DNA of 16,259 nt from a virus: the IMG/VR virus record IMGVR_UViG_3300045988_115994, one strand, 5' to 3'. Position 1 is the stretch's first letter. Each line of letters begins with the position of its first letter. The translations under genes and the position numbers were made by a program. Below, piece after piece: positions 1 through 16,259 of the stretch. The notes below the pieces were generated by a model. The model searched no databases, had not been told where the DNA came from, and was given only the letters and a program-made list of their open reading frames with translations.

Positions 1-299
1 AAGTCACATAGTCCGTGTAGGACGGACACCGTTTTCCCCAAAAAGACAAACACCTGTTCGATTTTCAGATATTAAATTTGCTATGGGAAACTTGATCAAA
101 TATAAGATGTCAATAGTAATATTGCACAAACATACATCAAAATTTTGTGCACTTTTACCATTGATTTTGTTGAAATCAGACAATACAACAATTTATCATA
201 ATTGTATATACAATTAAAACAAAAAGTGTCCGTTCACCGCGGACACAACCTGTCTTTGGTGGGCGAACACTATCGAACACTTGTTTGGTGTGGATAACT
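1..299. repeat. Left inverted terminal repeat (ITR), 299 bp
   Basis: Checked block by block: 1..299 is the exact reverse complement of 15961..16259, and identity ends at 300/15960. The repeat reaches both window ends. The 5' end starts AAGT, a 2-nt terminal reiteration. Confidence 0.97.
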
Positions 300-394: not shown

Positions 395-1117
395 ATGATA
401 ATTAACGTGCACGCGGGGCATAATCCGCATGGAAAACTAGCTTGTGGCGCTGTAGGTTTAATTTCAGAATCACTGGAAAATAGACGCGTAAAAGATCTGG
501 TGGTCGATGAATTACGTCGCATGGGTCACACTGTTTATGACTGTACAGTTGAAGATGGAACATCACAAACAAACGTTTTGACTCGTATAATCAATAAGTG
601 CAATATGCACTCGGTCGATCTTGATGTGTCGATACACTTTAATTCCGCATCTAGCGTTGGTGCTAATGGAACAGAGGTATATATTTATGACGAGTCATCA
701 AAGGCAAGCACTTATGCACTCAATGTCCTAAATGCGATATGTTCGTTAGGCTTTAGAAACAGAGGTGTAAAAGTTAATAAAAAGTTAGGTTTTTTACGTC
801 GAACAAAAGCACCCGCAATCCTTATTGAATGTTGTTTTGTGAATTCACAGAGAGATATTGCGCTGTACAGTCCGCATGAAGTGGCGGCGGCTATTGTTTA
901 CGGCATTACGGGAACAAGGCGCATATGCGAACCGCGAGCAGAGGTGGAAGATAAGAATGATGAACTGGACGTGTCAAGCGAGAAGATTGACGAAACTAAG
1001 ATCTATCGTGTGTCTGTACTCGATCAAAAAGGTGCTTTTCACAATATCGAAAATGCGCACAATTTATTGGTAGCGCTTGAAAGCGCCGGATTTAAGGCTA
1101 TAATAACGGAGGGATAA
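395..1117 (+). CDS. N-acetylmuramoyl-L-alanine amidase (Amidase_3, CwlC-like) endolysin with a SPOR-like C-terminal domain
   Basis: The RBS AGAGAGGAAA lies 6 nt upstream of the ATG. The N-terminus (IINVHAGHNPHG..AVG..E, later SIHFNS, GTEVY, FLRRTKAPAILIECCFVNS) fits the Amidase_3 zinc amidase pattern. The C-terminal ~40 aa (YRVSVLDQKGAFHNIENAHNLLVALESAGFKAII) resembles a SPOR repeat. Confidence 0.85.
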   Translation: MIINVHAGHNPHGKLACGAVGLISESLENRRVKDLVVDELRRMGHTVYDCTVEDGTSQTNVLTRIINKCNMHSVDLDVSIHFNSASSVGANGTEVYIYDESSKASTYALNVLNAICSLGFRNRGVKVNKKLGFLRRTKAPAILIECCFVNSQRDIALYSPHEVAAAIVYGITGTRRICEPRAEVEDKNDELDVSSEKIDETKIYRVSVLDQKGAFHNIENAHNLLVALESAGFKAIITEG

Positions 1118-1379: not shown

Positions 1380-1866
1380 GGACTACCTCTTAAGTTTGCG
1401 GGGAAAACAGCGGCGCGAGATGTACAAACAGCTTGTGCCGCTTGCAAACAAGCAGAAAGTACGAATTGAAAAGCAAGGCTTGGAGAAAGAAAGTGTGCTA
1501 AATGTACTACATAAGCGGACTAACTGGGATATAGATAAGTACAATTCACGCGCTTATCTTAAGTTGGTTCGATTTGTTACAGCGCGCTCTCATACTTTAA
1601 CTGGGATAAAGGAAATAAGGCAGGAACGTACGCAAGCATTACGCGATATGGGAATATCTGAAAATCTGTTAAATGAAGCAGATTTTTATACTTTTTTGCA
1701 TAGTCAAGAATACAAAAGTTTAAAAATGCGCAACCCATCGGAGGATATTATCGAAATTTATGATTTACTTTTTTCGCAGGGTAAGTCACATACAGAAATA
1801 CAACAAGAATTGCAAGAATATTCTAGCGCTACACATGTTTATGTAAAGGGGAGGGCTTTATGGTAA
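1369..1866 (+). CDS. Hypothetical basic helical protein (165 aa from ATG 1369; the ORF track starts at TTG 1348); candidate terminal protein by position only
   Basis: The ORF ends in ATGGTAA, overlapping the polymerase start, as the terminal-protein gene precedes the polymerase gene in phi29. The start overlaps the upstream stop (ATG 1369, TAA 1377-1379). No sequence similarity to phi29 TP was recognised and there is no strong RBS. Confidence 0.5.
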   Translation: MYNKDYLLSLRGKQRREMYKQLVPLANKQKVRIEKQGLEKESVLNVLHKRTNWDIDKYNSRAYLKLVRFVTARSHTLTGIKEIRQERTQALRDMGISENLLNEADFYTFLHSQEYKSLKMRNPSEDIIEIYDLLFSQGKSHTEIQQELQEYSSATHVYVKGRALW

Positions 1867-4043
1867 TATCTGTACAGCAGACTAAAAATGGAAAAGAAAC
1901 GATTGAAACTAAAGAAACAGTGTATTCTGTAGCGTCATACCCATATGACGCTACAGTTTTAGATTGTACTACAGTACGGAAAAAAGGGCGAAACGGACTT
2001 ACATATATAGCGTGTCCGGCAACGTTTGACATAGAAAGTACAACTATAGACGGCGAAAAACCAGAAGCATTTATGTATCATTGGCAGTTTTGCTTGAATG
2101 GTAAAGTCTGTTTTGGGCGAACTTGGGAAGAATGGATAAATTTTATGCATAAGCTAGGAACTACTTTGGAATTGGACGCTAAAAAAGTGTTAGTAATATA
2201 TGTCCATAATTTAGCTTATGAATTTATGTTTATAAAGGATTTTTTGCATATAGAATCACTTTTTGCGAGAGAAGCGCACAAGGTTATTAAAGTTTTAGTT
2301 TGCTTGGGTAATGATTACGGGAAAAGTATAAATAAAGTTGGGAATGTTTCACGTGAAACATTTCTTCTTCCCTTTTTTGAATTTAGGTGTAGTTATTTTT
2401 TATCAAATATGTCTTTATCTAAATTTTGCGAAAATAGCAAATTTTGCACACACTATAAATTAGTAGACACTTATGATTATAGAAAAATACGGACACCGTC
2501 GACGCCGATGACGGAGGAAGAATTAGCGTATTGTTATAACGATGTAAAAGGTTTAGAAGAGTGCATTTTGTCGAAATTAGATGACGAGTGTGACACGTTA
2601 GCTACCATACCTTTAACATCGACAGGATACGTGCGGCGAGAAATGCGTGCAGAGTGCCGAAAACATCCAGAATATCGCGAACTTTTTGAAATACTTATGC
2701 CTACTACACAAATTTATACGTTATTGCGTCAAGCGTTTCGTGGCGGCAATACTCATGCGTCAAGGTACTATGCAGATGCCGTCATAGAGGGAGTTTACAG
2801 CAAAGATAGAGTGTCTAGCTATCCGGCATGTATTGTATCTGATTTATACCCAATGACACCATTTATAGTGTACGAACCTAAGTCTTACGCACAACTTATA
2901 GCGGATTGTGGAAAAAAGAAAAATGCTATAATAATGCGTATAACTTTATTTGATTTAGATGTGCACGATGATGTGACCGTGCCATATATTGATTTTGCGC
3001 ACTGTATAGCCTACAGTAAAAATTATGTAAATGATAACGGACGAGTGTTATCAGCCGATTGGATAACATATGCTTGTACAGAGTTGGACTTTTTAATTAT
3101 AAATAATCAATATAGCTACGATACTATGCGCCTAGAATGGCTAGAGGGCTACAAGGCAGAGAAAGACTACTTGCCTAAACCCATAGTTGACACAGCTCTT
3201 TCTTATTATGACAAGAAAACACAATTAAAAGATGTGAGTGGAAAAGAATATGAGTATGCAAAAAGCAAAAATAAGGCTAATTCCGTTTTTGGTGTTATGG
3301 TTACAGATATATGTCAAGGCGAAATAGAATATATAGATGGCGTTTGGTCTAAGACTATGCCGGATAAGGAAAGTGCTATAGCGGCTTACGCCGCAAGCAA
3401 AAACTCTTTTTTGCTTTATCAATGGGGAGTTTACATTACAGCAAATGCGCGCTATGAACTGCAATGCATGATTGATGCTTGCGGCTATGATTTTGTGTAC
3501 GCAGACACGGATAGTGTAAAATTTATTGGTAAAAAACATTTAAAATCTTTTGACGACAGAAATAATTATTTATTATCCAAAAAACAAAAGTACAGAAATT
3601 ATAGTGATCGTTTAAACGATGATGGCACAACAACGCGATACACGCTCGGTGTATGGGATGATGATGGTTTTTATAAAAAGTTTAAAACATTGGGTGCGAA
3701 AAAGTATGCATATATTGCGGACGAGAAAAACAAAAAAACTGGAGAGATAGAAGAAGTTTTACATGTTACTGTTTCCGGCTTATCAAAAACAAAAGGCGCG
3801 GCAGAACTTGCGCGTGGAAATGGCTTAGCTGATTTTAAAATTGGCAAAATATTTACTGACTCGGGGCGCACAGTGTCATACTTTAATGAGAGCGATGTAC
3901 ATACTATAAAAGTAATAGATTACAATGGAAAAGAAAGTGAGTTTACCACAGCGTCAAACATAGCAATAGTTGATACTACTTATACTTTAGGTGTATCTGA
4001 CGAGTACGCCGCCGTCTTAGGCTCTTGTATAAATTTTGAATAA
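1860..4043 (+). CDS. Protein-primed family B DNA polymerase (phi29 gp2-like), 727 aa
   Basis: RBS GGGGAGGG upstream. Motifs seen: ExoI FDIESTT, ExoII HNLAYEF, ExoIII YCYNDV, motif A DRVSSYP, motif B KNKANSVFG, motif C YADTDS, and KxY as GAKKYAY followed by VTVSGLSK. Motif order and spacing are as in the phi29 polymerase. Confidence 0.95.
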   Translation: MVISVQQTKNGKETIETKETVYSVASYPYDATVLDCTTVRKKGRNGLTYIACPATFDIESTTIDGEKPEAFMYHWQFCLNGKVCFGRTWEEWINFMHKLGTTLELDAKKVLVIYVHNLAYEFMFIKDFLHIESLFAREAHKVIKVLVCLGNDYGKSINKVGNVSRETFLLPFFEFRCSYFLSNMSLSKFCENSKFCTHYKLVDTYDYRKIRTPSTPMTEEELAYCYNDVKGLEECILSKLDDECDTLATIPLTSTGYVRREMRAECRKHPEYRELFEILMPTTQIYTLLRQAFRGGNTHASRYYADAVIEGVYSKDRVSSYPACIVSDLYPMTPFIVYEPKSYAQLIADCGKKKNAIIMRITLFDLDVHDDVTVPYIDFAHCIAYSKNYVNDNGRVLSADWITYACTELDFLIINNQYSYDTMRLEWLEGYKAEKDYLPKPIVDTALSYYDKKTQLKDVSGKEYEYAKSKNKANSVFGVMVTDICQGEIEYIDGVWSKTMPDKESAIAAYAASKNSFLLYQWGVYITANARYELQCMIDACGYDFVYADTDSVKFIGKKHLKSFDDRNNYLLSKKQKYRNYSDRLNDDGTTTRYTLGVWDDDGFYKKFKTLGAKKYAYIADEKNKKTGEIEEVLHVTVSGLSKTKGAAELARGNGLADFKIGKIFTDSGRTVSYFNESDVHTIKVIDYNGKESEFTTASNIAIVDTTYTLGVSDEYAAVLGSCINFE
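2343..2362. repeat. Copy 1 of the 20-bp perfect palindrome AATGTTTCACGTGAAACATT, inside the polymerase CDS
   Basis: Exact 20-mer identical to copies at 5988, 7155 and 11070. It is read in frame as GNVSRETF, between ExoII and ExoIII. Confidence 0.95.
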
Positions 4044-4700: not shown

Positions 4701-4728
4701 TTGACATTTCCGGCAATAAGCGTATAAT
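4701..4728 (+). promoter_or_regulatory. Early promoter P-E2 (TTGACA-N16-TATAAT)
   Basis: TTGACA at 4701-4706 and TATAAT at 4723-4728, followed by AGATAATGTAAGGAACA, which is shared with P-E1. Confidence 0.6.
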
Positions 4729-5038: not shown

Positions 5039-5236
5039 ATGAATTTTTATAATTTATACATGTTAAATAGCGGTTGGACACCATATTCAAATATAGATAT
5101 TGCGTATCTACATGATGGAAAAATAGTTCGCGATTCTGGTTCGGCAATAGACATGATTACTAAATACCATAATTTCAGAGTAGTCGCTTTTATAATGGAT
5201 AATGTAACCTTAGAAGAAGTAACTGAAACGCCATAA
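5039..5236 (+). CDS. Small hypothetical protein (65 aa), paralogue B
   Basis: RBS GGGAGGAAAAAA upstream. It is a tandem paralogue of 4790..4978. Confidence 0.7.
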   Translation: MNFYNLYMLNSGWTPYSNIDIAYLHDGKIVRDSGSAIDMITKYHNFRVVAFIMDNVTLEEVTETP

Positions 5237-5243
5237 CGGGCGT
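5228..5243 (+). other. Conserved hairpin B (ACGCC-N6-GGCGT), overlapping the stop codon of 5039..5236
   Basis: Stem 5228-5232 pairs with 5239-5243 and is followed by AACGTACAAGG as in copy A. A second stem, CAAGG/CCTTG, spans 5250-5266. Confidence 0.6.
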
Positions 5244-5315
5244 AACGTACAAGGCTTGCAACCTTGCGTCTAATAATGCTAAGTAACGCACAAACAAGAA
5301 AGTGAGGAAACAACA

Positions 5316-5564
5316 ATGGTAAGAATATCAGCAGAGACAAAATATAATTTAATGGGAGCGGTAGAGAGATGTAGTAACTATTATAAAAATACAACTCACA
5401 CGTATAACTTTAAAGAAATATACCGTGATACAGATAATACTTTTCTCTTTCACGTTACGAGAATTTCTAATAAAGATCTCGGGCGTCTCGTAGAACCGGA
5501 AACAGTTGGATACATTAAATTATATTTAGATGATAAAACAAAAAAGACTGAATTTTTCAGATAA
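5316..5564 (+). CDS. Small hypothetical protein (82 aa)
   Basis: The RBS AAGAAAGTGAGGAAAC is nearly identical to the one at 4770. I recognise no motif. Confidence 0.65.
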   Translation: MVRISAETKYNLMGAVERCSNYYKNTTHTYNFKEIYRDTDNTFLFHVTRISNKDLGRLVEPETVGYIKLYLDDKTKKTEFFR

Positions 5565-5987: not shown

Positions 5988-6007
5988 AATGTTTCACGTG
6001 AAACATT
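5988..6007. repeat. Copy 2 of the 20-bp palindrome, 3 nt after the stop of 5688..5984
   Basis: Exact AATGTTTCACGTGAAACATT. No T-tract follows it. Confidence 0.95.
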
Positions 6008-6043: not shown

Positions 6044-6472
6044 ATGTCAAGCAGAAAAATCAGAGGAATTGTAAGAAACATTTTTGTCAAAGATGACAAC
6101 GAAGTATCAATTTTAATCGAGATCGACGAGAAAACAGCGACAGAGCTCCGCGGCGTGTATGATGCAAAAATCGAGAATCCGTTAAAGGACGGTGAGGGCG
6201 ATCTTGAGGGCAAGGTGCTGTACAAGGCACACACAAAATATCCGGTGAACCTTTACATGCAGGGCGACCCTGTGGAAACAGAGGACGAGACGGAAAATAT
6301 CGAAGAAATCCGCAAAATCGGCAATGGTTCGGCTGTAACTATCAGAGTCCGCGAGCAGTTGTACGGTCGCTACAAGTCAAAGAAATTCCAGTCTGCTTAT
6401 CTCAAGGCAATCAATGTACGCGAGCTTGTAGAAGCAGAGCCGTATATGGATTTTGACGAAGATGACAACTAA
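6044..6472 (+). CDS. Candidate single-stranded DNA-binding protein (gp2.5/DUF2815-like), 142 aa
   Basis: RBS AAGGAGA upstream. Evidence for the call: an acidic C-terminal tail (PYMDFDEDDN), PLKDGEGD and IGNGSAVTIRV segments reminiscent of phage gp2.5-type SSBs, and a position in the replication module. The product call is an inference. Confidence 0.5.
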   Translation: MSSRKIRGIVRNIFVKDDNEVSILIEIDEKTATELRGVYDAKIENPLKDGEGDLEGKVLYKAHTKYPVNLYMQGDPVETEDETENIEEIRKIGNGSAVTIRVREQLYGRYKSKKFQSAYLKAINVRELVEAEPYMDFDEDDN

Positions 6473-6490
6473 ATAACGATCAGCCGCAGT

Positions 6491-6797
6491 TCTGCCATCC
6501 CACAGCATGAAACAACATACATGCAGTAGAATGTCATCGAATGGCATTGAACGGCATTGCACAGCATTAAATGTTGTGTGATGCCGATGGATGGCAGATA
6601 AGCGGGTGTATTGCATTACGGGTACTGGACAGTTATTTTGGTTTTCTCTCGTTTCCTCCGACTTGCCTAGTCGAAAATGTCCAGATTTTTATGTCAACCA
6701 GTACCCGTAATGGAGTATTACCCGCTATCCCGTTAAAAGCCCCGTACACCATGCGGAAAAACGCAGGGGTGCAGAGTGGTGTCTGCAAGGATAGCGG
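6491..6797 (+). ncRNA. Candidate structured non-coding RNA (pRNA-like or late-operon leader); not assigned to any known family
   Basis: Perfect long-range complementarities: 6491-6500/6589-6598 (10 bp), 6601-6607/6720-6726 (7 bp), 6615-6628/6698-6711 (14 bp) and 6722-6730/6789-6797 (9 bp). Local hairpins at 6659-6673, 6740-6769 and 6770-6787. The only ORF here has no RBS. Confidence 0.4.
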
Positions 6798-6832
6798 CGA
6801 ACCTCTAAATTAAATAAGGGAGAGTAAAGAAG

Positions 6833-7156
6833 ATGATTTATTTAATTACTTTTTTGTTTATGGTTCTGGATTTTATAAGCGGAATCGTAATGGCAGTGAA
6901 GAACAAGAATTTCAATTCTTCTATTATGCGTGAAGGGCTTTTCAACAAGTTCGGTTCTGTTTGCGTGATTGCTTGCGCGGTGCTGATTGACTGGGGGCAG
7001 ATTTATCTTGATATTGGTTTTACCGTTCCGGTAGCGTCTGCAATGTGCAGTTATATTATTCTTATGGAAATCGGTTCGATTTTGGAAAACGTAGGGAGAA
7101 TAAATAAGAACTTAGTACCCGAGAAAATCCGGTCGATATTAGAAAAGGTTTCATAA
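6833..7156 (+). CDS. Holin (phage holin family 4 / toxin-secretion holin-like), 107 aa
   Basis: RBS AAGGGAGAG upstream. Three hydrophobic segments, an N-terminal VLDFISGIVMAVKNKNFNSS..GLFNK pattern typical of this holin family, and a charged C-terminus. Confidence 0.75.
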   Translation: MIYLITFLFMVLDFISGIVMAVKNKNFNSSIMREGLFNKFGSVCVIACAVLIDWGQIYLDIGFTVPVASAMCSYIILMEIGSILENVGRINKNLVPEKIRSILEKVS

Positions 7157-7174
7157 TGTTTCACGTGAAACATT
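7155..7174. repeat. Copy 3 of the 20-bp palindrome (extends to 24 bp, 7153..7176); overlaps the holin stop codon and abuts the tRNA
   Basis: Exact 20-mer, with flanking AT/AT that extend the palindrome. The tRNA acceptor stem starts at 7177. Confidence 0.95.
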
Positions 7175-7176
7175 AT

Positions 7177-7247
7177 TGGCGCGTAGTTCAGAGGGAGAAC
7201 AGTAGATTCTGACTCTATAGTCGCGGGTTCGATTCCCGCCGCGCTAG
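7177..7247 (+). tRNA. tRNA-Gln, anticodon CUG (71 nt, CCA not encoded)
   Basis: Hand-folded cloverleaf:
- Acceptor TGGCGCG/CGCGCTA (U1-A72, G2-U71), discriminator G.
- D stem GTTC/GAAC with loop AGAGGGA.
- Anticodon stem GTAGA/TCTAT with loop TTCTGAC.
- Variable region AGTC.
- T stem GCGGG/CCCGC with loop TTCGATT.
U1-A72 plus G73 is typical of bacterial tRNA-Gln. Confidence 0.9.
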
Positions 7248-7266
7248 TTTTTGGAGGAAAAGAGAC

Positions 7267-8334
7267 GTGAAGTTTACAAAACCTTATTACAATTTAGATG
7301 AAATTAAAAGTGTAAAAGATTTAGACGGTTGCGAACCGATCTTGAGAATGATTATTGGAAACCGTAGCGCCGGAAAAACCACGGCTTTACTAATTGAAAG
7401 TTTGAATAAACATAAAGAGGATAGTTCGCAAGTTGTATTCTTATACAGAACACAAGACGAGATAGCAAGCAGTGGCAAAATGTATGAAGATGTTTTTGAC
7501 AATTACCCAGAAATGGGTAAAATGGTTACAAATAAAAGTGTAGTTAAAGGGCTTATTAGCGCTATGATTTTACATGACGCGGAGGAAAATCAAAGCGTTT
7601 TAGGCTATGCGGTTTATTTTAACAATCCCGATAAAATCAAAAAATATAGCCCTATGTTTAAAGATGTAAATTTGATTGTTTTTGATGAATTTGTACTTGA
7701 AAACAATGGTTATTTAAAAAATGAGATAACTAAGTTTGAAAGCGTTTTGCGTAGTATATGCCGTGGTAAAGGTAAGCAAGTGCGTGATGTTCCAGTTTAC
7801 ATGCTTGCGAATTATGTAGTTTTGCTAAACCCATATTATATATTTTTTGGTATGCACAAGCGATTGCGTGATAATACAAGGTTTTTACGCGGTCATGGTT
7901 GGGTAGCACAATTTACTATCAATAAAAGCGCTAAGAAAGCGCTTAATGAAAGTGGATTAAGTAAAGTTTTTAGTAATAGTGCTTATACGCTATCATCCGC
8001 TGATGGAATTTATCTATGTGATGCCACGGCTTTTGTTGAAAAAATCAGTGGAAACAGTAACTATATTTTTACTCTTGTATGTGGGAAAGATCGTTTTGCT
8101 GTAAGAGAGTATCCAGAAAAAGGTGTGGTTTATATTGACTACACAGCAGACCCCAACGCAAGACATATTTTTACGTTCGACCCGTCAAGCCACAATGCAG
8201 ATACGCTTATGTTATCGAGTAAGTCTTTTATTTATGATTATTTAAAGAGGGCTTATGATATGGGTCTATTGAGGTTTAAAGACCTTAAATGCAAAAATAT
8301 TGTGTTGGATATATTGAGTGTGAGGTTGATGTAA
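7267..8334 (+). CDS. DNA encapsidation (packaging) ATPase, phi29 gp16-like
   Basis: GTG start 9 nt after GGAGG. Walker A is IIGNRSAGKTT (compare phi29 VIGARGIGKS) and Walker B is NLIVFDEF. N-terminal similarity YYNLDEIKS versus FYNPQKMLS. Confidence 0.9.
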   Translation: MKFTKPYYNLDEIKSVKDLDGCEPILRMIIGNRSAGKTTALLIESLNKHKEDSSQVVFLYRTQDEIASSGKMYEDVFDNYPEMGKMVTNKSVVKGLISAMILHDAEENQSVLGYAVYFNNPDKIKKYSPMFKDVNLIVFDEFVLENNGYLKNEITKFESVLRSICRGKGKQVRDVPVYMLANYVVLLNPYYIFFGMHKRLRDNTRFLRGHGWVAQFTINKSAKKALNESGLSKVFSNSAYTLSSADGIYLCDATAFVEKISGNSNYIFTLVCGKDRFAVREYPEKGVVYIDYTADPNARHIFTFDPSSHNADTLMLSSKSFIYDYLKRAYDMGLLRFKDLKCKNIVLDILSVRLM

Positions 8335-11069: not shown

Positions 11070-11096
11070 AATGTTTCACGTGAAACATTGATTTTT
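11070..11096 (+). terminator. Copy 4 of the 20-bp palindrome (11070..11089) followed by a T5 run; likely a partial intrinsic terminator after the capsid gene
   Basis: The exact 20-mer starts 1 nt after the TAA, then GATTTTT. The RNA stem would be 8 bp and AT-rich with an ACGU loop, so it is weak. Confidence 0.55.
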
Positions 11097-12835: not shown

Positions 12836-13726
12836 ATGAAAAATCAATCTAAAGACGCTGAATATTTTAGTGTACCACAGTATCGCAATTATTATGTGCG
12901 TTACTTTAATATGTTGCATGAAATGATCGTGAACCGATTTGAATGGTTGGGATTGCCGGATGAAATTCCACCGAGAGTATTAGAAGATTATCTTTTCTGG
13001 TGGGGGCAGGCTGTCTTTTTTAAAGATGATGTACTAGAAAAATACGCCGCTATGAAAACCAACCTTGGCGGTACTGTAGATATTTATGGCGTACCTAACA
13101 TGCGTTTCGCCCATGCACAACAGTATTTTAAAACGCTTGGAAAAAATAACAGTGTCATCATCTGGGACAGTAGCGTAGGTTATCCTAGCGTTGACTATGT
13201 GCAGATGTACGCGGAAAGTTTGGCAAATATGAGGATGACAAGAAATTTAAATATTTACGCGCAAAGAACGCCTGTTGTTATTGCGGGTAGCGAAAATCAG
13301 CGCTTAAGTATAAAAAACCTCTTTAAACAGTATAATGATTTTGTACCATTTATCAGCGTTAAAGACGGAATTAGTAACGTTGAGAACATGAAAGTACTAA
13401 ATCTAAACCCACCTAACGTATTCGGTGACCTTACAACGGCTATGAGACAAGAAATTGCAGACTTTTGCGTCCAATTCGGTATTAGTAATATTGACGGCAC
13501 AAAAAAAGAACGTTTAATTACGAGCGAAGTCGAACAAGATGCTGACCTCACGTTAATTAACCGGCAATCTTTTTTAAGTGTGCGAAAGCGCGCTTGTGAG
13601 CAGATTAACCGTCTGTTTGGACTTGAGGTTGATGTGCAATACATTGGTAACGGCTTAGGTCTGGAAAGAAAAGAAAAACTTGTAAATGGAGGTGACGAAA
13701 ATGTCGACCTATACGACGAAGATTAG
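12836..13726 (+). CDS. Portal (head-tail connector / upper collar), phi29 gp10-like
   Basis: [17 protein letters not shown] matches gp10 [42 protein letters not shown] matches [35 protein letters not shown] matches [23 protein letters not shown] matches ACEKINELYGLNV. Confidence 0.95.
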   Translation: [296 protein letters not shown]

Positions 13727-14480
13727 AGACTACATTGAGAGTTTTACAGACTGGAAAGATTTAAACGCAACTACTTATGACAAGATCGAAAAAGGTATGC
13801 CGAAGCTTTTCGACTTTACGTTTCCATGGTACAATGACGATGAGTCCAGTAAAACAGAGTTTGAACGTATGTTTATCATACACTTTTACATGTGTGAGAT
13901 CGGTTTTGAAACCATCGGCTTATTTAAGCTTAAGTTAAACGACACGCTTACGCGAAATATGCCGAAATATAAGGCTATGTATGACAGTAATTTAGCAGTG
14001 GCACAGATTTTGGAAAACGTCAACATGACGTTTGACGATACTGACACAAGCGACGGAAACAACACAAGCGAAGCAGACCACACAATGAGTGACACAAATA
14101 ACAGCAATTCCAATGATCAACGAATCAATAGCGACAACCCGCAAGTCAATTTTTCCGGTGCAGATTACGCAAGCGGTATGACTAGAGGACAGAGCACCGA
14201 AGAGGATAGACGCACGGTTAGCGAACAAAACACAGGCAAGAGTAATACATCCATTATAGATACTAGCCACCGGACGGAAAAAGGATGGCGAGGCAGTAAA
14301 ATGAATGAACTCATTATGTACCGTGAGCACATTGTTAATGTTAATAACACAATCATTGCAGATTGCGAAGAATTATTTATGTCTGTATATGCAGATTTTG
14401 CGGAGCATGGTAACGATTTTAATATGGCGACTTACGGAAATCGTGGAAACTTGGGCTTATCTATTGATTGGATGAGATAG
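13701..14480 (+). CDS. Lower collar protein (phi29 gp11 position), 259 aa
   Basis: RBS GGAGGTGA upstream. The start overlaps the portal gene by 26 nt. FERMFIIHFYMCEIGFETIGLFKLKLN..NMPKYKAMYDS fits the lower-collar family pattern known from small podophages. The middle of the protein is S/N/D-rich and low in complexity. Confidence 0.75.
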   Translation: MSTYTTKIRDYIESFTDWKDLNATTYDKIEKGMPKLFDFTFPWYNDDESSKTEFERMFIIHFYMCEIGFETIGLFKLKLNDTLTRNMPKYKAMYDSNLAVAQILENVNMTFDDTDTSDGNNTSEADHTMSDTNNSNSNDQRINSDNPQVNFSGADYASGMTRGQSTEEDRRTVSEQNTGKSNTSIIDTSHRTEKGWRGSKMNELIMYREHIVNVNNTIIADCEELFMSVYADFAEHGNDFNMATYGNRGNLGLSIDWMR

Positions 14481-15961: not shown

Positions 15962-16259
15962 GTTATCCACACCAAACAAGTGTTCGATAGTGTTCGCCCA
16001 CCAAAGACAGGTTGTGTCCGCGGTGAACGGACACTTTTTGTTTTAATTGTATATACAATTATGATAAATTGTTGTATTGTCTGATTTCAACAAAATCAAT
16101 GGTAAAAGTGCACAAAATTTTGATGTATGTTTGTGCAATATTACTATTGACATCTTATATTTGATCAAGTTTCCCATAGCAAATTTAATATCTGAAAATC
16201 GAACAGGTGTTTGTCTTTTTGGGGAAAACGGTGTCCGTCCTACACGGACTATGTGACTT
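15961..16259. repeat. Right inverted terminal repeat (ITR), 299 bp
   Basis: Exact reverse complement of 1..299. Confidence 0.97.
16014..16044 (+). terminator. Intrinsic terminator inside the right ITR
   Basis: GTGTCCG (16014-16020), loop CGGTGAA, CGGACAC (16028-16034), then TTTTTGTTTT. The mirror copy at 216..246 faces outward on the minus strand. Confidence 0.7.

Follow-up and report, generated by a model that had tools for sequence, protein, structure and literature searches.

What is encoded in the largest gap between the genes of a phi29-like phage is the question raised by positions 6473-6832 of the DNA recorded as IMG/VR virus IMGVR_UViG_3300045988_115994. The whole stretch of 16,259 nucleotides (16.3 kb), called the window throughout, is a complete phi29-like podophage genome bounded by inverted terminal repeats (ITRs), with every gene on the + strand, and the gap lies, on that strand, between replication and packaging genes. 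A preliminary description, made from the letters alone, had seen there a self-complementary non-coding region, and suggested either an RNA resembling the prohead RNA (pRNA) of phi29 or the leader of the late operon. The stretch from ~6483 to 6815 (+) encodes a non-coding RNA of ~330 nt. The reading favoured here, held tentatively and at a little less than an even chance, is that a group of phi29-like phages, from Clostridia and the gut, has in this RNA its counterpart of the phi29 prohead (packaging) RNA, greatly expanded in the present genome.

Much of what had been read directly from the sequence was borne out. Among plausible + strand genes in the list of open reading frames (ORFs), the largest internal gap measures 360 nt and all others ~123 nt or less, and the GC content of the gap (0.458) exceeds that of the early region (0.30-0.41). 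The complementary segments are where they had been placed, namely TCTGCCATCC 6491-6500 with GGATGGCAGA 6589-6598, AGCGGGT 6601-6607 with ACCCGCT 6720-6726, and ATTACGGGTACTGG 6615-6628 with CCAGTACCCGTAAT 6698-6711, and so are the local hairpins at 6659-6673, 6740-6769 and 6770-6787; a repeat search also recovers the complementarities. On the + strand the 360 nt fold at -139.8 kcal/mol, vs -95.3 +/- 5.1 for dinucleotide shuffles (z = -8.75), a value equalled by 0 of 100 shuffles; the minus strand gives z = -5.6.

That the gap codes for an 80-aa protein, from ORF 6571..6813, is extremely improbable. The ORF has an ATG start, but it lacks a Shine-Dalgarno sequence, as had been claimed, and matches no family; close relatives have indels of 1, 23 and 26 nt that disrupt its frame, and substitutions track the helices. 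An 8-codon ORF from AUG 6710 was also rejected: it is not conserved, and the 79% clade reads GUG GAG UAG at this place.

The RNA is made up of three domains: a four-way junction at the 5' end, a long middle hairpin with a variable tip and a conserved 3' core. Their elements are given below; MFE stands for minimum free energy, and loci fetched for comparison carry the prefix L.

6483-6487/6794-6798 (+): possible closing helix GCCGC/GCGGC, from MFE folding and RNAalifold; an alternative to outer helix A
6491-6598 (+): 5' domain, a four-way junction on the stem 6491-6500/6589-6598
6505-6509/6520-6524, 6530-6537/6541-6548 and 6552-6567/6571-6586 (+): hairpins of the 5' domain
6601-6726 (+): long middle hairpin, with base AGCGGGU/ACCCGCU and helix 6615-6628/6698-6711
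6609-6615/6711-6717 (+): internal motif UAUUGCA/UGGAGUA of the middle hairpin, with a G.G mismatch; invariant in the window clade
6629-6697 (+): tip of the middle hairpin, variable and dispensable, with deletions of 23 nt (L005) and 26 nt (L004)
6722-6797 (+): 3' core, a three-way junction indicated by covariation and reproduced by folding the core alone
6722-6730/6789-6797 (+): helix A, 9 bp
6731-6738 (+): core junction strand CGUUAAAA
6739-6743/6766-6770 (+): helix C
6744-6751 (+): 8-nt bulge GUACACCA in the 5' strand of helix C, leading straight into hairpin E
6747-6751 (+): CACCA, the 3' end of the bulge, abutting hairpin E and complementary to UGGUG 6777-6781 in the D loop
6752-6755/6762-6765 (+): hairpin E, 4 bp, with the 6-nt loop GAAAAA 6756-6761
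6771-6775/6782-6786 (+): hairpin D, with the loop GUGGUG 6776-6781
6798-6817 (+): single-stranded tail beginning with CGAACCUCUAAA, conserved in alignment A3

The evidence that this is a structured RNA of the + strand, as had been supposed, comes from relatives, in which the pairing of the core and of the middle hairpin is kept by compensatory changes. Five IMG/VR contigs carry the region at 78-99% identity and already show many such changes. Where the packaging ATPase is only 55-79% identical, the contigs keep a gap in the corresponding position ahead of the holin gene, 330-400 nt long, and these gaps fold strongly (z = -4.8 to -8.6). Almost no similarity between them and the region is found by blastn, and the family was therefore traced by synteny and covariance models. 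The same search against GenBank phages gave no match, and a 14-mer scan of viral contigs gave chance matches only (loci L006-L125).

The covariation check proposed in the preliminary description was performed on the homologous intergenic regions. Alignment A3 covers the 3' 100 nt in 18 distinct sequences from four clades, and the tested structure consists of four helices plus the bulge/loop pairing. In the core, 97.5% of cells are paired, with changes on both sides in 18 of 27 pairs; when the 3' partners are slid by 1-3 columns as a control, pairing drops to ~35%. None of 500 shuffles reaches the observed values, save for the number of pairs changed on both sides, which was reached in 2 of 500. 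After realignment of the core with distant members (alignment A4), 94.9% of cells are paired and 23 of 27 pairs covary. CACCA and UGGUG stay paired in 100% of cells in A3 and in 97.8% in A4, with two positions changed on both sides (A-U to C-G and C-G to U-A). The contact could form inside a single molecule, as a pseudoknot, or join two molecules, as a kissing interaction, arrangements that covariation cannot separate. In the middle hairpin, double changes are found in the window clade at 8 of 10 pairs (columns 160-169/246-255). The internal motif is kept in the 79% clade, in L133 (UGUCG/GGGCA, a compensatory change) and in L134. G-U pairs are frequent, such as U-G in 10 sequences (columns 19/84) and G-U in 9 (columns 65/76); since these would be C-A mismatches on the other strand, they allow pairing on the + strand only.

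The same data bear on a DNA-level element, i.e. an operator set, a promoter region or an early/late switch in which the inverted repeats would be protein sites on double-stranded DNA. Such an element could be expected from the position of the region at the boundary of the replication and late modules, and the 10-bp-phased repeats at 6530-6569 would put sites on the same face of the helix. What is conserved is, however, the pairing rather than the sequence, with the frequent G-U pairs just mentioned. The promoter TTGCAT-N17-TATTTT suggested at 6611-6639 had to be rejected, because it sits inside a helix covarying at the RNA level; its -10 part falls in the variable tip and is not conserved. No promoter-like site is present in 6300-6900 on the + strand, and an 18-bp palindrome located outside the region, described below, is a much better operator candidate. 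A DNA-level element is thus very unlikely. It is largely refuted for the middle hairpin and the core, and the DNA-level and coding readings are together essentially excluded.

The domains differ in how far they are conserved. Folded by itself, the 5' domain gives z = -7.4, and it contains ~3.4 copies of a tandem 10-nt repeat, AAYGGCAUUG, at 6530-6569. Its sequence is almost invariant within the window clade, so that covariation is little informative and the fold is a thermodynamic prediction only. The repeat motif GGCAU is common to the 5' domains of all four clades with a large form (e.g. L131 3213-3262), although the predicted folds differ, and the repeats may be multiple protein-binding sites. 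The possible closing helix is likewise outside the reach of covariation, its bases being invariant in the window clade save for one G-U. Helix A extends over 9 bp and then branches into the four-way junction; the middle hairpin could stack on it. For CUCU in the tail a possible partner is GGAG 6712-6715, a pairing like that of the closing helix in small forms. This candidate pairing conflicts with that of the middle hairpin, and A3 holds one compensatory change for it in L133 and one in L134. The junction strands of the core vary freely between clades while the architecture is kept, a behavior typical of scaffold RNAs and not of metabolite aptamers.

As a separate observation, the interval from the RNA core to the Shine-Dalgarno sequence of the holin gene holds, in most relatives, a strong hairpin that is rich in GC and lacks a U tract, e.g. 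GCGGCGGUA...UACCGCCGC. Such hairpins are found at ~3505-3540 in the L131 type, ~3590-3625 in L133, ~3585-3620 in L134 and 3944-3975 in L204. Their sequence varies by clade, and the window clade is devoid of them.

The core is not confined to the large form. Stand-alone versions of 75-100 nt are found beside the gp16-type ATPase gene in ~9 other lineages of phi29-like phages of Clostridia and of the gut. The link to gp16 holds across at least 9 rearranged gene orders, with direct adjacency in ~7 of 10 lineages, and the ATPase gene is the most constant genomic neighbour of the family; its product is the proposed protein partner of the RNA. Relatives of this small human-gut phage originate from human-gut metagenomes, and the nearest cultured phages infect Clostridia, HM2 (ATPase identity 42%) being followed by CS229P3, CH17P1 and CI461P3. 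A covariance model of the core, R1, gave weaker matches directly after the ATPase gene in L138 and L139/L140, and ~340 nt after it, before the holin gene, in L160/L204-L208. A second model, R2, confirmed the R1 loci and added L206 and L225. The latter (E = 0.02, directly 5' of the ATPase gene) was counted only as probable, because hairpin D and the bulge pairing are ambiguous in its MFE fold. Neither model found anything significant in the left end of phi29, HM2, CS229P3 or CH17P1.

Members in HM2 and CI461P3 were recognised only by reading their folds and by means of an architecture descriptor; they have the same layout without sequence similarity. In CI461P3 the RNA has the PolB gene on one side and the ATPase gene on the other, with the promoter-type sequence TGCTATAAT ahead of it. 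The HM2 RNA follows the ATPase gene directly, its bulge GUAGUC being complementary to the D loop GACUAC. Between HM2 and its metagenomic relative L249, compensatory changes are seen in hairpin E, in the outer helix and in the terminator hairpin that follows. A promoter precedes the RNA in both, and a second one comes after the terminator, for which reasons the HM2 RNA looks like a transcription unit of its own.

The descriptor defines helix and loop sizes and the complementarity of bulge and D loop, and uses no sequence. The search covered 58 sequences, the window plus 57 related phi29-like loci, each on the strand of its ATPase gene. At 26 or more paired bases, 10 hits were obtained in the flanks of the ATPase gene (73.8 kb) and 1 in the remainder (278 kb); at 28 or more, the numbers were 7 and 0. 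In shuffled sequence the rate was 0.4 hits per 335 kb at the lower threshold, and at the higher one ten shuffles produced no hit. Within the window the descriptor gives only a background-level match outside the gap, in agreement with the preliminary remark that the genome shows no second pRNA candidate.

Five top hits, in L156, L157, L158, L231 and L163, were absent from the design of the descriptor. In L156-L158 the RNA comes just after the ATPase gene, with a TTGACA-17-TATATT or TATAAT promoter directly 5'; loop E is GAGA, and the bulge/loop pairs are AGCCCG/UGGGCU and UGGCU/AGCCA. In L231 and L163 it lies just before the ATPase gene, behind a TTGACT-17-TATAAT promoter, and comes closest to phi29, with ~22 bp in helix A and 9-10 bp in helix C; there are compensatory changes between both contigs, hairpin D is UUGA-GUGGUA-UCAA and the bulge/loop pair is UACC/GGUA. 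Pairs of bulge and D loop in other lineages include, besides these and that of HM2, AUCC/GGAU and AAUCA/UGAUU. The junction is reproduced by MFE folding alone in L231, L158, L139, L138 and the core of the window.

Two loci may be added as observations in their own right. In CH17P1 (L247, a Hungatella phage), a non-coding gap of 235 nt at 13576-13810 separates the PolB and ATPase genes; its complex fold, with a 9-bp outer helix and a hairpin with the hexaloop GUGAAA, was not fitted by the three-way-junction layout. In L141 (ATPase identity 39%), at 5111-5410, a perfect TTGACA-17-TATAAT promoter directly after the ATPase gene drives ~250 nt of structured non-coding sequence, which ends in what looks like a tRNA T-arm and acceptor (GGTTCGATTCCGTCC); this stretch is not matched by the covariance models.

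The genes around the RNA bear on what it may do, and are listed here.

395-1117 (+): endolysin gene
1860-4043 (+): protein-primed-type PolB gene, with small early genes after it
6044-6472 (+): 142-aa gene of unknown product, ending at the start of the gap
6818-6835 (+): Shine-Dalgarno sequence GGGAGAG and ATG of the holin gene, directly 3' of the RNA, with no terminator between
6833-7156 (+): holin gene (PF05105)
7176-7248: tRNA-Gln(CUG), between the holin and ATPase genes
7267-8334 (+): gp16-type packaging ATPase gene (PF05894, C-terminal domain included)
downstream of the ATPase gene (+): genes for the major capsid protein, the tail knob and the gp10-type portal

The portal (PF05352, the gp10 family) and the gp16-type ATPase, both taken to be present in the preliminary description, were confirmed by these family matches, and the ATPase by matches in the PDB as well. 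The ATPase aligns with phi29 gp16 from end to end, and also with its isolated C-terminal domain (PDB 7JQQ, 5HD9, 6V1W, 7CNB).

With this arrangement the RNA might be a cis-acting 5' leader of the late transcript, controlling translation or elongation of the first late gene (holin here, ATPase in other phages). Variants are conceivable in which the leader binds a phage protein, as in an autoregulatory loop of the ATPase, or times lysis. The reading is possible, even if we consider it rather unlikely; it had been one of the two first suggestions and stands as the main rival of the favoured explanation. In every case the RNA is read from the coding strand and has a Shine-Dalgarno sequence 10-60 nt downstream, in most lineages with no terminator in the interval. 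It lies directly 5' of a PF05105 holin gene in the window, L133, L134, L139, L156-158 and L204-208, which amounts to five or six lineages. Near-consensus promoters stand immediately 5' of it in L139, L225, L156, L158, L231, CI461P3 and HM2, and since the promoters, where seen, have this position, the RNA would be the start of the mRNA. The RNA of the present phage has no promoter or terminator of its own, and a 2023 survey (PMC10690425) lists six candidate RNAs upstream of Podovirus_gp16 as possibly cis-regulatory.

The gene downstream is, however, not constant: it may be the holin gene, the ATPase gene (directly 5' of which the RNA is found in three lineages), a 135-aa ORF or, in HM2, an unrelated 80-aa gene. 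In HM2 and L249 the conserved terminator and the fresh promoter come between the RNA and the next gene. No conserved alternative pairing hides the Shine-Dalgarno sequence; its sequestration by the CUCU tail was considered and discarded, as CUCU/AGAG allows 4 bp at most in the window and is not conserved. Junction nucleotides are unconserved, unlike those of riboswitch aptamers, and 330 nt in three domains is large for a simple leader.

The transcription unit of HM2 is also in accord with a trans-acting phage RNA of some other role, e.g. a protein scaffold or decoy in host takeover or anti-defence, or a self-assembling ornate RNA, its proximity to the ATPase gene being inherited gene order. A conserved structure with fast-evolving sequence would suit such a role, as would the variable tip and the clade-specific 5' domain, where the GGCAU repeats resemble multiple protein-binding sites; large RNAs whose function is unknown, GOLLD and ROOL among them, do occur in phages (PMC12286853). 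We regard this possibility as improbable: the tight link to gp16 survives genome rearrangement, the match to the layout of pRNA would be a coincidence, and no Rfam family is matched, GOLLD, ROOL, 6S and tRNA-like RNAs included. The Rfam search, proposed in the preliminary description for RF00044 and all other families, thus gave no identification. At E <= 10, all 4227 families produced only noise-level miRNA hits in the region, with no match to GOLLD, ROOL, OLE, raiA, 6S, tmRNA, a ribozyme, a tRNA-like RNA or a riboswitch. Over the window and 18 related loci only tRNAs and the phi29 control were found.

The counterpart of pRNA is suggested by the layout of the core, the linkage to gp16, the free variation of the junction, the stand-alone unit of HM2 and the conserved C-terminal domain of gp16; the promoters standing immediately 5' in other lineages likewise point to an independent transcription unit. 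In the mechanism proposed, the CACCA bulge and the UGGUG loop of hairpin D would pair between neighbouring copies, and a ring of several copies would thus sit at the portal vertex of an empty prohead. Helix A, lengthened by the middle hairpin and the 5' domain, would project outward and dock the gp16-type ATPase by its C-terminal domain; in this way the RNA would assemble the packaging motor. Intermolecular pairing, binding of portal and ATPase and the role in packaging are all putative.

A number of points weigh against this reading. RF00044 at E <= 10 has no match in the window, L231, L163, L156 or L158. At the gathering score it has none in 13 relatives, the phi29 positive control scoring 145 bits. 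R2 conversely does not detect the phi29 pRNA locus, and because RF00044 and the new models fail both ways, homology to phi29 pRNA is not demonstrated and the likeness is architectural and contextual. Helix C has 3-5 bp here, vs ~9 bp in phi29; the arms being of equal length and helix C short, the bulge/loop pairing could be a mere intramolecular pseudoknot. The RNA adjoins the ATPase and holin genes, unlike phi29 pRNA, which is encoded at the genome end. It has the holin Shine-Dalgarno sequence within 20 nt, as in a cis-regulatory leader, and its position directly 5' of holin genes, given above, is leader-like as well. No promoter-like or terminator-like site flanks it in this phage, and no conserved sigma-70 promoter was found 5' of it in the window clade. 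Many related loci gave no match with the models or the descriptor (CS229P3, L141-144, L209-224, Cp-1). The N-terminus of the portal, MKNQSKD, is weakly basic; that of phi29 reads MARKRS. The 2023 survey took RNAs upstream of gp16 as probably cis-regulatory (PMC10690425). The original pRNA suggestion gains from the shared core layout and from the recurrence beside gp16, which the preliminary description had not seen; the match to the Rfam model and the flanking signals did not materialise in this phage.

A wider conjecture, on the doubtful side of even, is that packaging RNAs are general, fast-evolving parts of gp16-type motors, encoded next to the ATPase gene in phi29-like phages of Clostridia and of the human gut. 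The present phage would have a 330-nt 'ornate' form with three domains, the largest known, which might also serve as a lysis/packaging leader coupling late expression to motor assembly. The pRNA-like layout, the covarying loop pairing and the expanded form of 330 nt are, to our knowledge, new.

Several further features of the genome deserve a record. Matches in mirrored positions, 99-176 and 16084-16161, reveal the ITRs. From each of them a terminator-like hairpin of the same sequence, GTGTCCG...CGGACAC with a T run after it, points inward, at 226-246 (-) and 16014-16034 (+). The only sigma-70 promoter of the genome with 12 of 12 consensus positions, TTGACA-16-TATAAT, is found at 4701-4728 (+), among the small early genes, and is a possible origin of a transcript running through the RNA. 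At 1927-1956, on the coding strand and ~70 nt into the PolB ORF, a perfect 13-bp hairpin, CTGTAGCGTCATA-CCCA-TATGACGCTACAG, is followed by TTTT, and could be an attenuator or other regulatory hairpin. Where the window has tRNA-Gln(CUG), the 79% clade has a tRNA too (L131 3912-3982), and L133-L136 have none.

The 18-bp palindrome mentioned above, ATGTTTCACGTGAAACAT, is perfect and occurs in four exact copies, at 2344-2361, 5989-6006, 7156-7173 and 11071-11088, where 0.01 are expected; two of them flank the unit formed by gene 6044-6472, the RNA and the holin gene. It is found without mismatch in 74 of 249 fetched loci, the carriers including phi29-like gut phages with an ATPase identity of 25-40% and the cultured CS229P3 and CH17P1. 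It is nearly always placed just past a stop codon, 10-40 nt ahead of the next Shine-Dalgarno sequence, at times in tandem. It might serve a conserved regulator as operator, or act in RNA as a hairpin or a signal for processing.

The interest of the locus depends on which reading is correct. pRNA is the only known RNA integral to a viral DNA-packaging motor, and RNA nanotechnology relies on it widely. Experimental knowledge of it comes from a single narrow group of Bacillus phages, its origin and generality being open (PMC5066667, PMC11476376). If the RNA is a packaging RNA, such RNAs may extend beyond Bacillus phages; the ring-forming core would be shown to shrink to ~75 nt or to expand to ~330 nt, many new natural three-way-junction and kissing-loop modules would be at hand, and the docking of small gp16 ATPases on the portal in non-Bacillus phi29-like phages would be explained. 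If it is a leader instead, it would represent a new class of cis-regulator for lysis and packaging genes of abundant gut phages. Members are present in cultured Clostridium phages (HM2, CI461P3), and the question is therefore directly testable.

Among known systems, riboswitches do not fit: the junction varies, no conserved terminator/antiterminator or hairpin hiding a Shine-Dalgarno sequence is seen, and no Rfam riboswitch matches. Autoregulatory 5' leaders to which the product of the gene binds, such as the leader pseudoknot of T4 gene 32, are comparable as structured RNAs with a pseudoknot that directly precede a phage gene within its transcript. Leaders of this type are, however, small and each tied to one gene, whereas here the gene downstream differs between lineages and, in HM2, is separated from the RNA by a terminator. 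GOLLD and ROOL are large multi-domain phage RNAs, often near tRNA genes, which self-assemble into homo-oligomers (PMC12286853); they differ in size (~600-800 nt), have an unrelated architecture and no link to gp16, and give no Rfam match here.

Further parallels are found in phi29-like phages. The preliminary statement that pRNA has been characterised only in Bacillus phages agrees with a 2024 review, which restricts pRNA to phi29 and its relatives among Bacillus phages (PMC11476376), but needs qualification on two counts. A putative pRNA of the Streptococcus phage Cp-1 was proposed by Martin, Lopez and Garcia in 1996, as cited in PMC6266182 (ref. 61), so that a pRNA has been suggested, as here, in a phi29-like phage outside Bacillus. 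A covariance model of Bacillus pRNAs could not reliably find it (PMC6266182), and in Cp-1 our descriptor gave no more than a background hit. In addition, Fremin and Bhatt (2023) reported six unnamed candidate RNAs 'consistently upstream of Podovirus_gp16', listed as possibly cis-regulatory (PMC10690425). These are likewise predicted structured RNAs in IMG/VR contigs beside gp16-type genes, listed without a link to pRNA. They very probably overlap the small forms (L225, L231 and CI461P3 type); the RNA of the present phage differs in being upstream of the holin gene, and not within 25 nt of gp16.

The comparison with phi29 was based on the pRNA sequence and on the Rfam RF00044 consensus ('3WJ core of Phi29 Bacteriophage pRNA'). 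In phi29 pRNA, helix A is followed by helix C (9 bp, with a bulge) and by a 9-nt CE loop on the 5' strand, the last four bases of which, AACC, abut the 4-bp E helix with its 6-nt loop. Then come the 3' strand of C, UUU, hairpin D (6 bp, loop UGGUU) and the 3' strand of A. Some differences concern extent and junctions. Helix A has ~25 bp with bulges in phi29, where it carries the 5' and 3' ends, as against 9 bp here and ~22 bp in L231. The junction has a U-rich strand between A and C here, vs UUU between C and D in phi29. With ~330 nt and two extra domains, the RNA of this phage is far larger, and it is free of the flanking promoter and terminator, which the HM2 RNA, like phi29 pRNA, does own. 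The likenesses lie in the architecture itself. By covariation and by independent MFE folds, the core is a three-way junction with the same order A, C/E, D. Helix C has a one-sided bulge (8 nt here, 5-9 nt in the family, 9 nt in phi29), the last 4-6 nt of which abut an E hairpin of 4 bp with a 6-nt loop. Hairpin D has 5-6 bp and a loop of 5-7 nt, complementary to the bulge and covarying with it, and the bulge/loop pair AACC/GGUU is itself found in three clades. As with phi29 pRNA, sequences diverge fast under a structure that is kept, in phages with a protein-primed PolB, ITRs, a gp10-type portal and a gp16-type ATPase.

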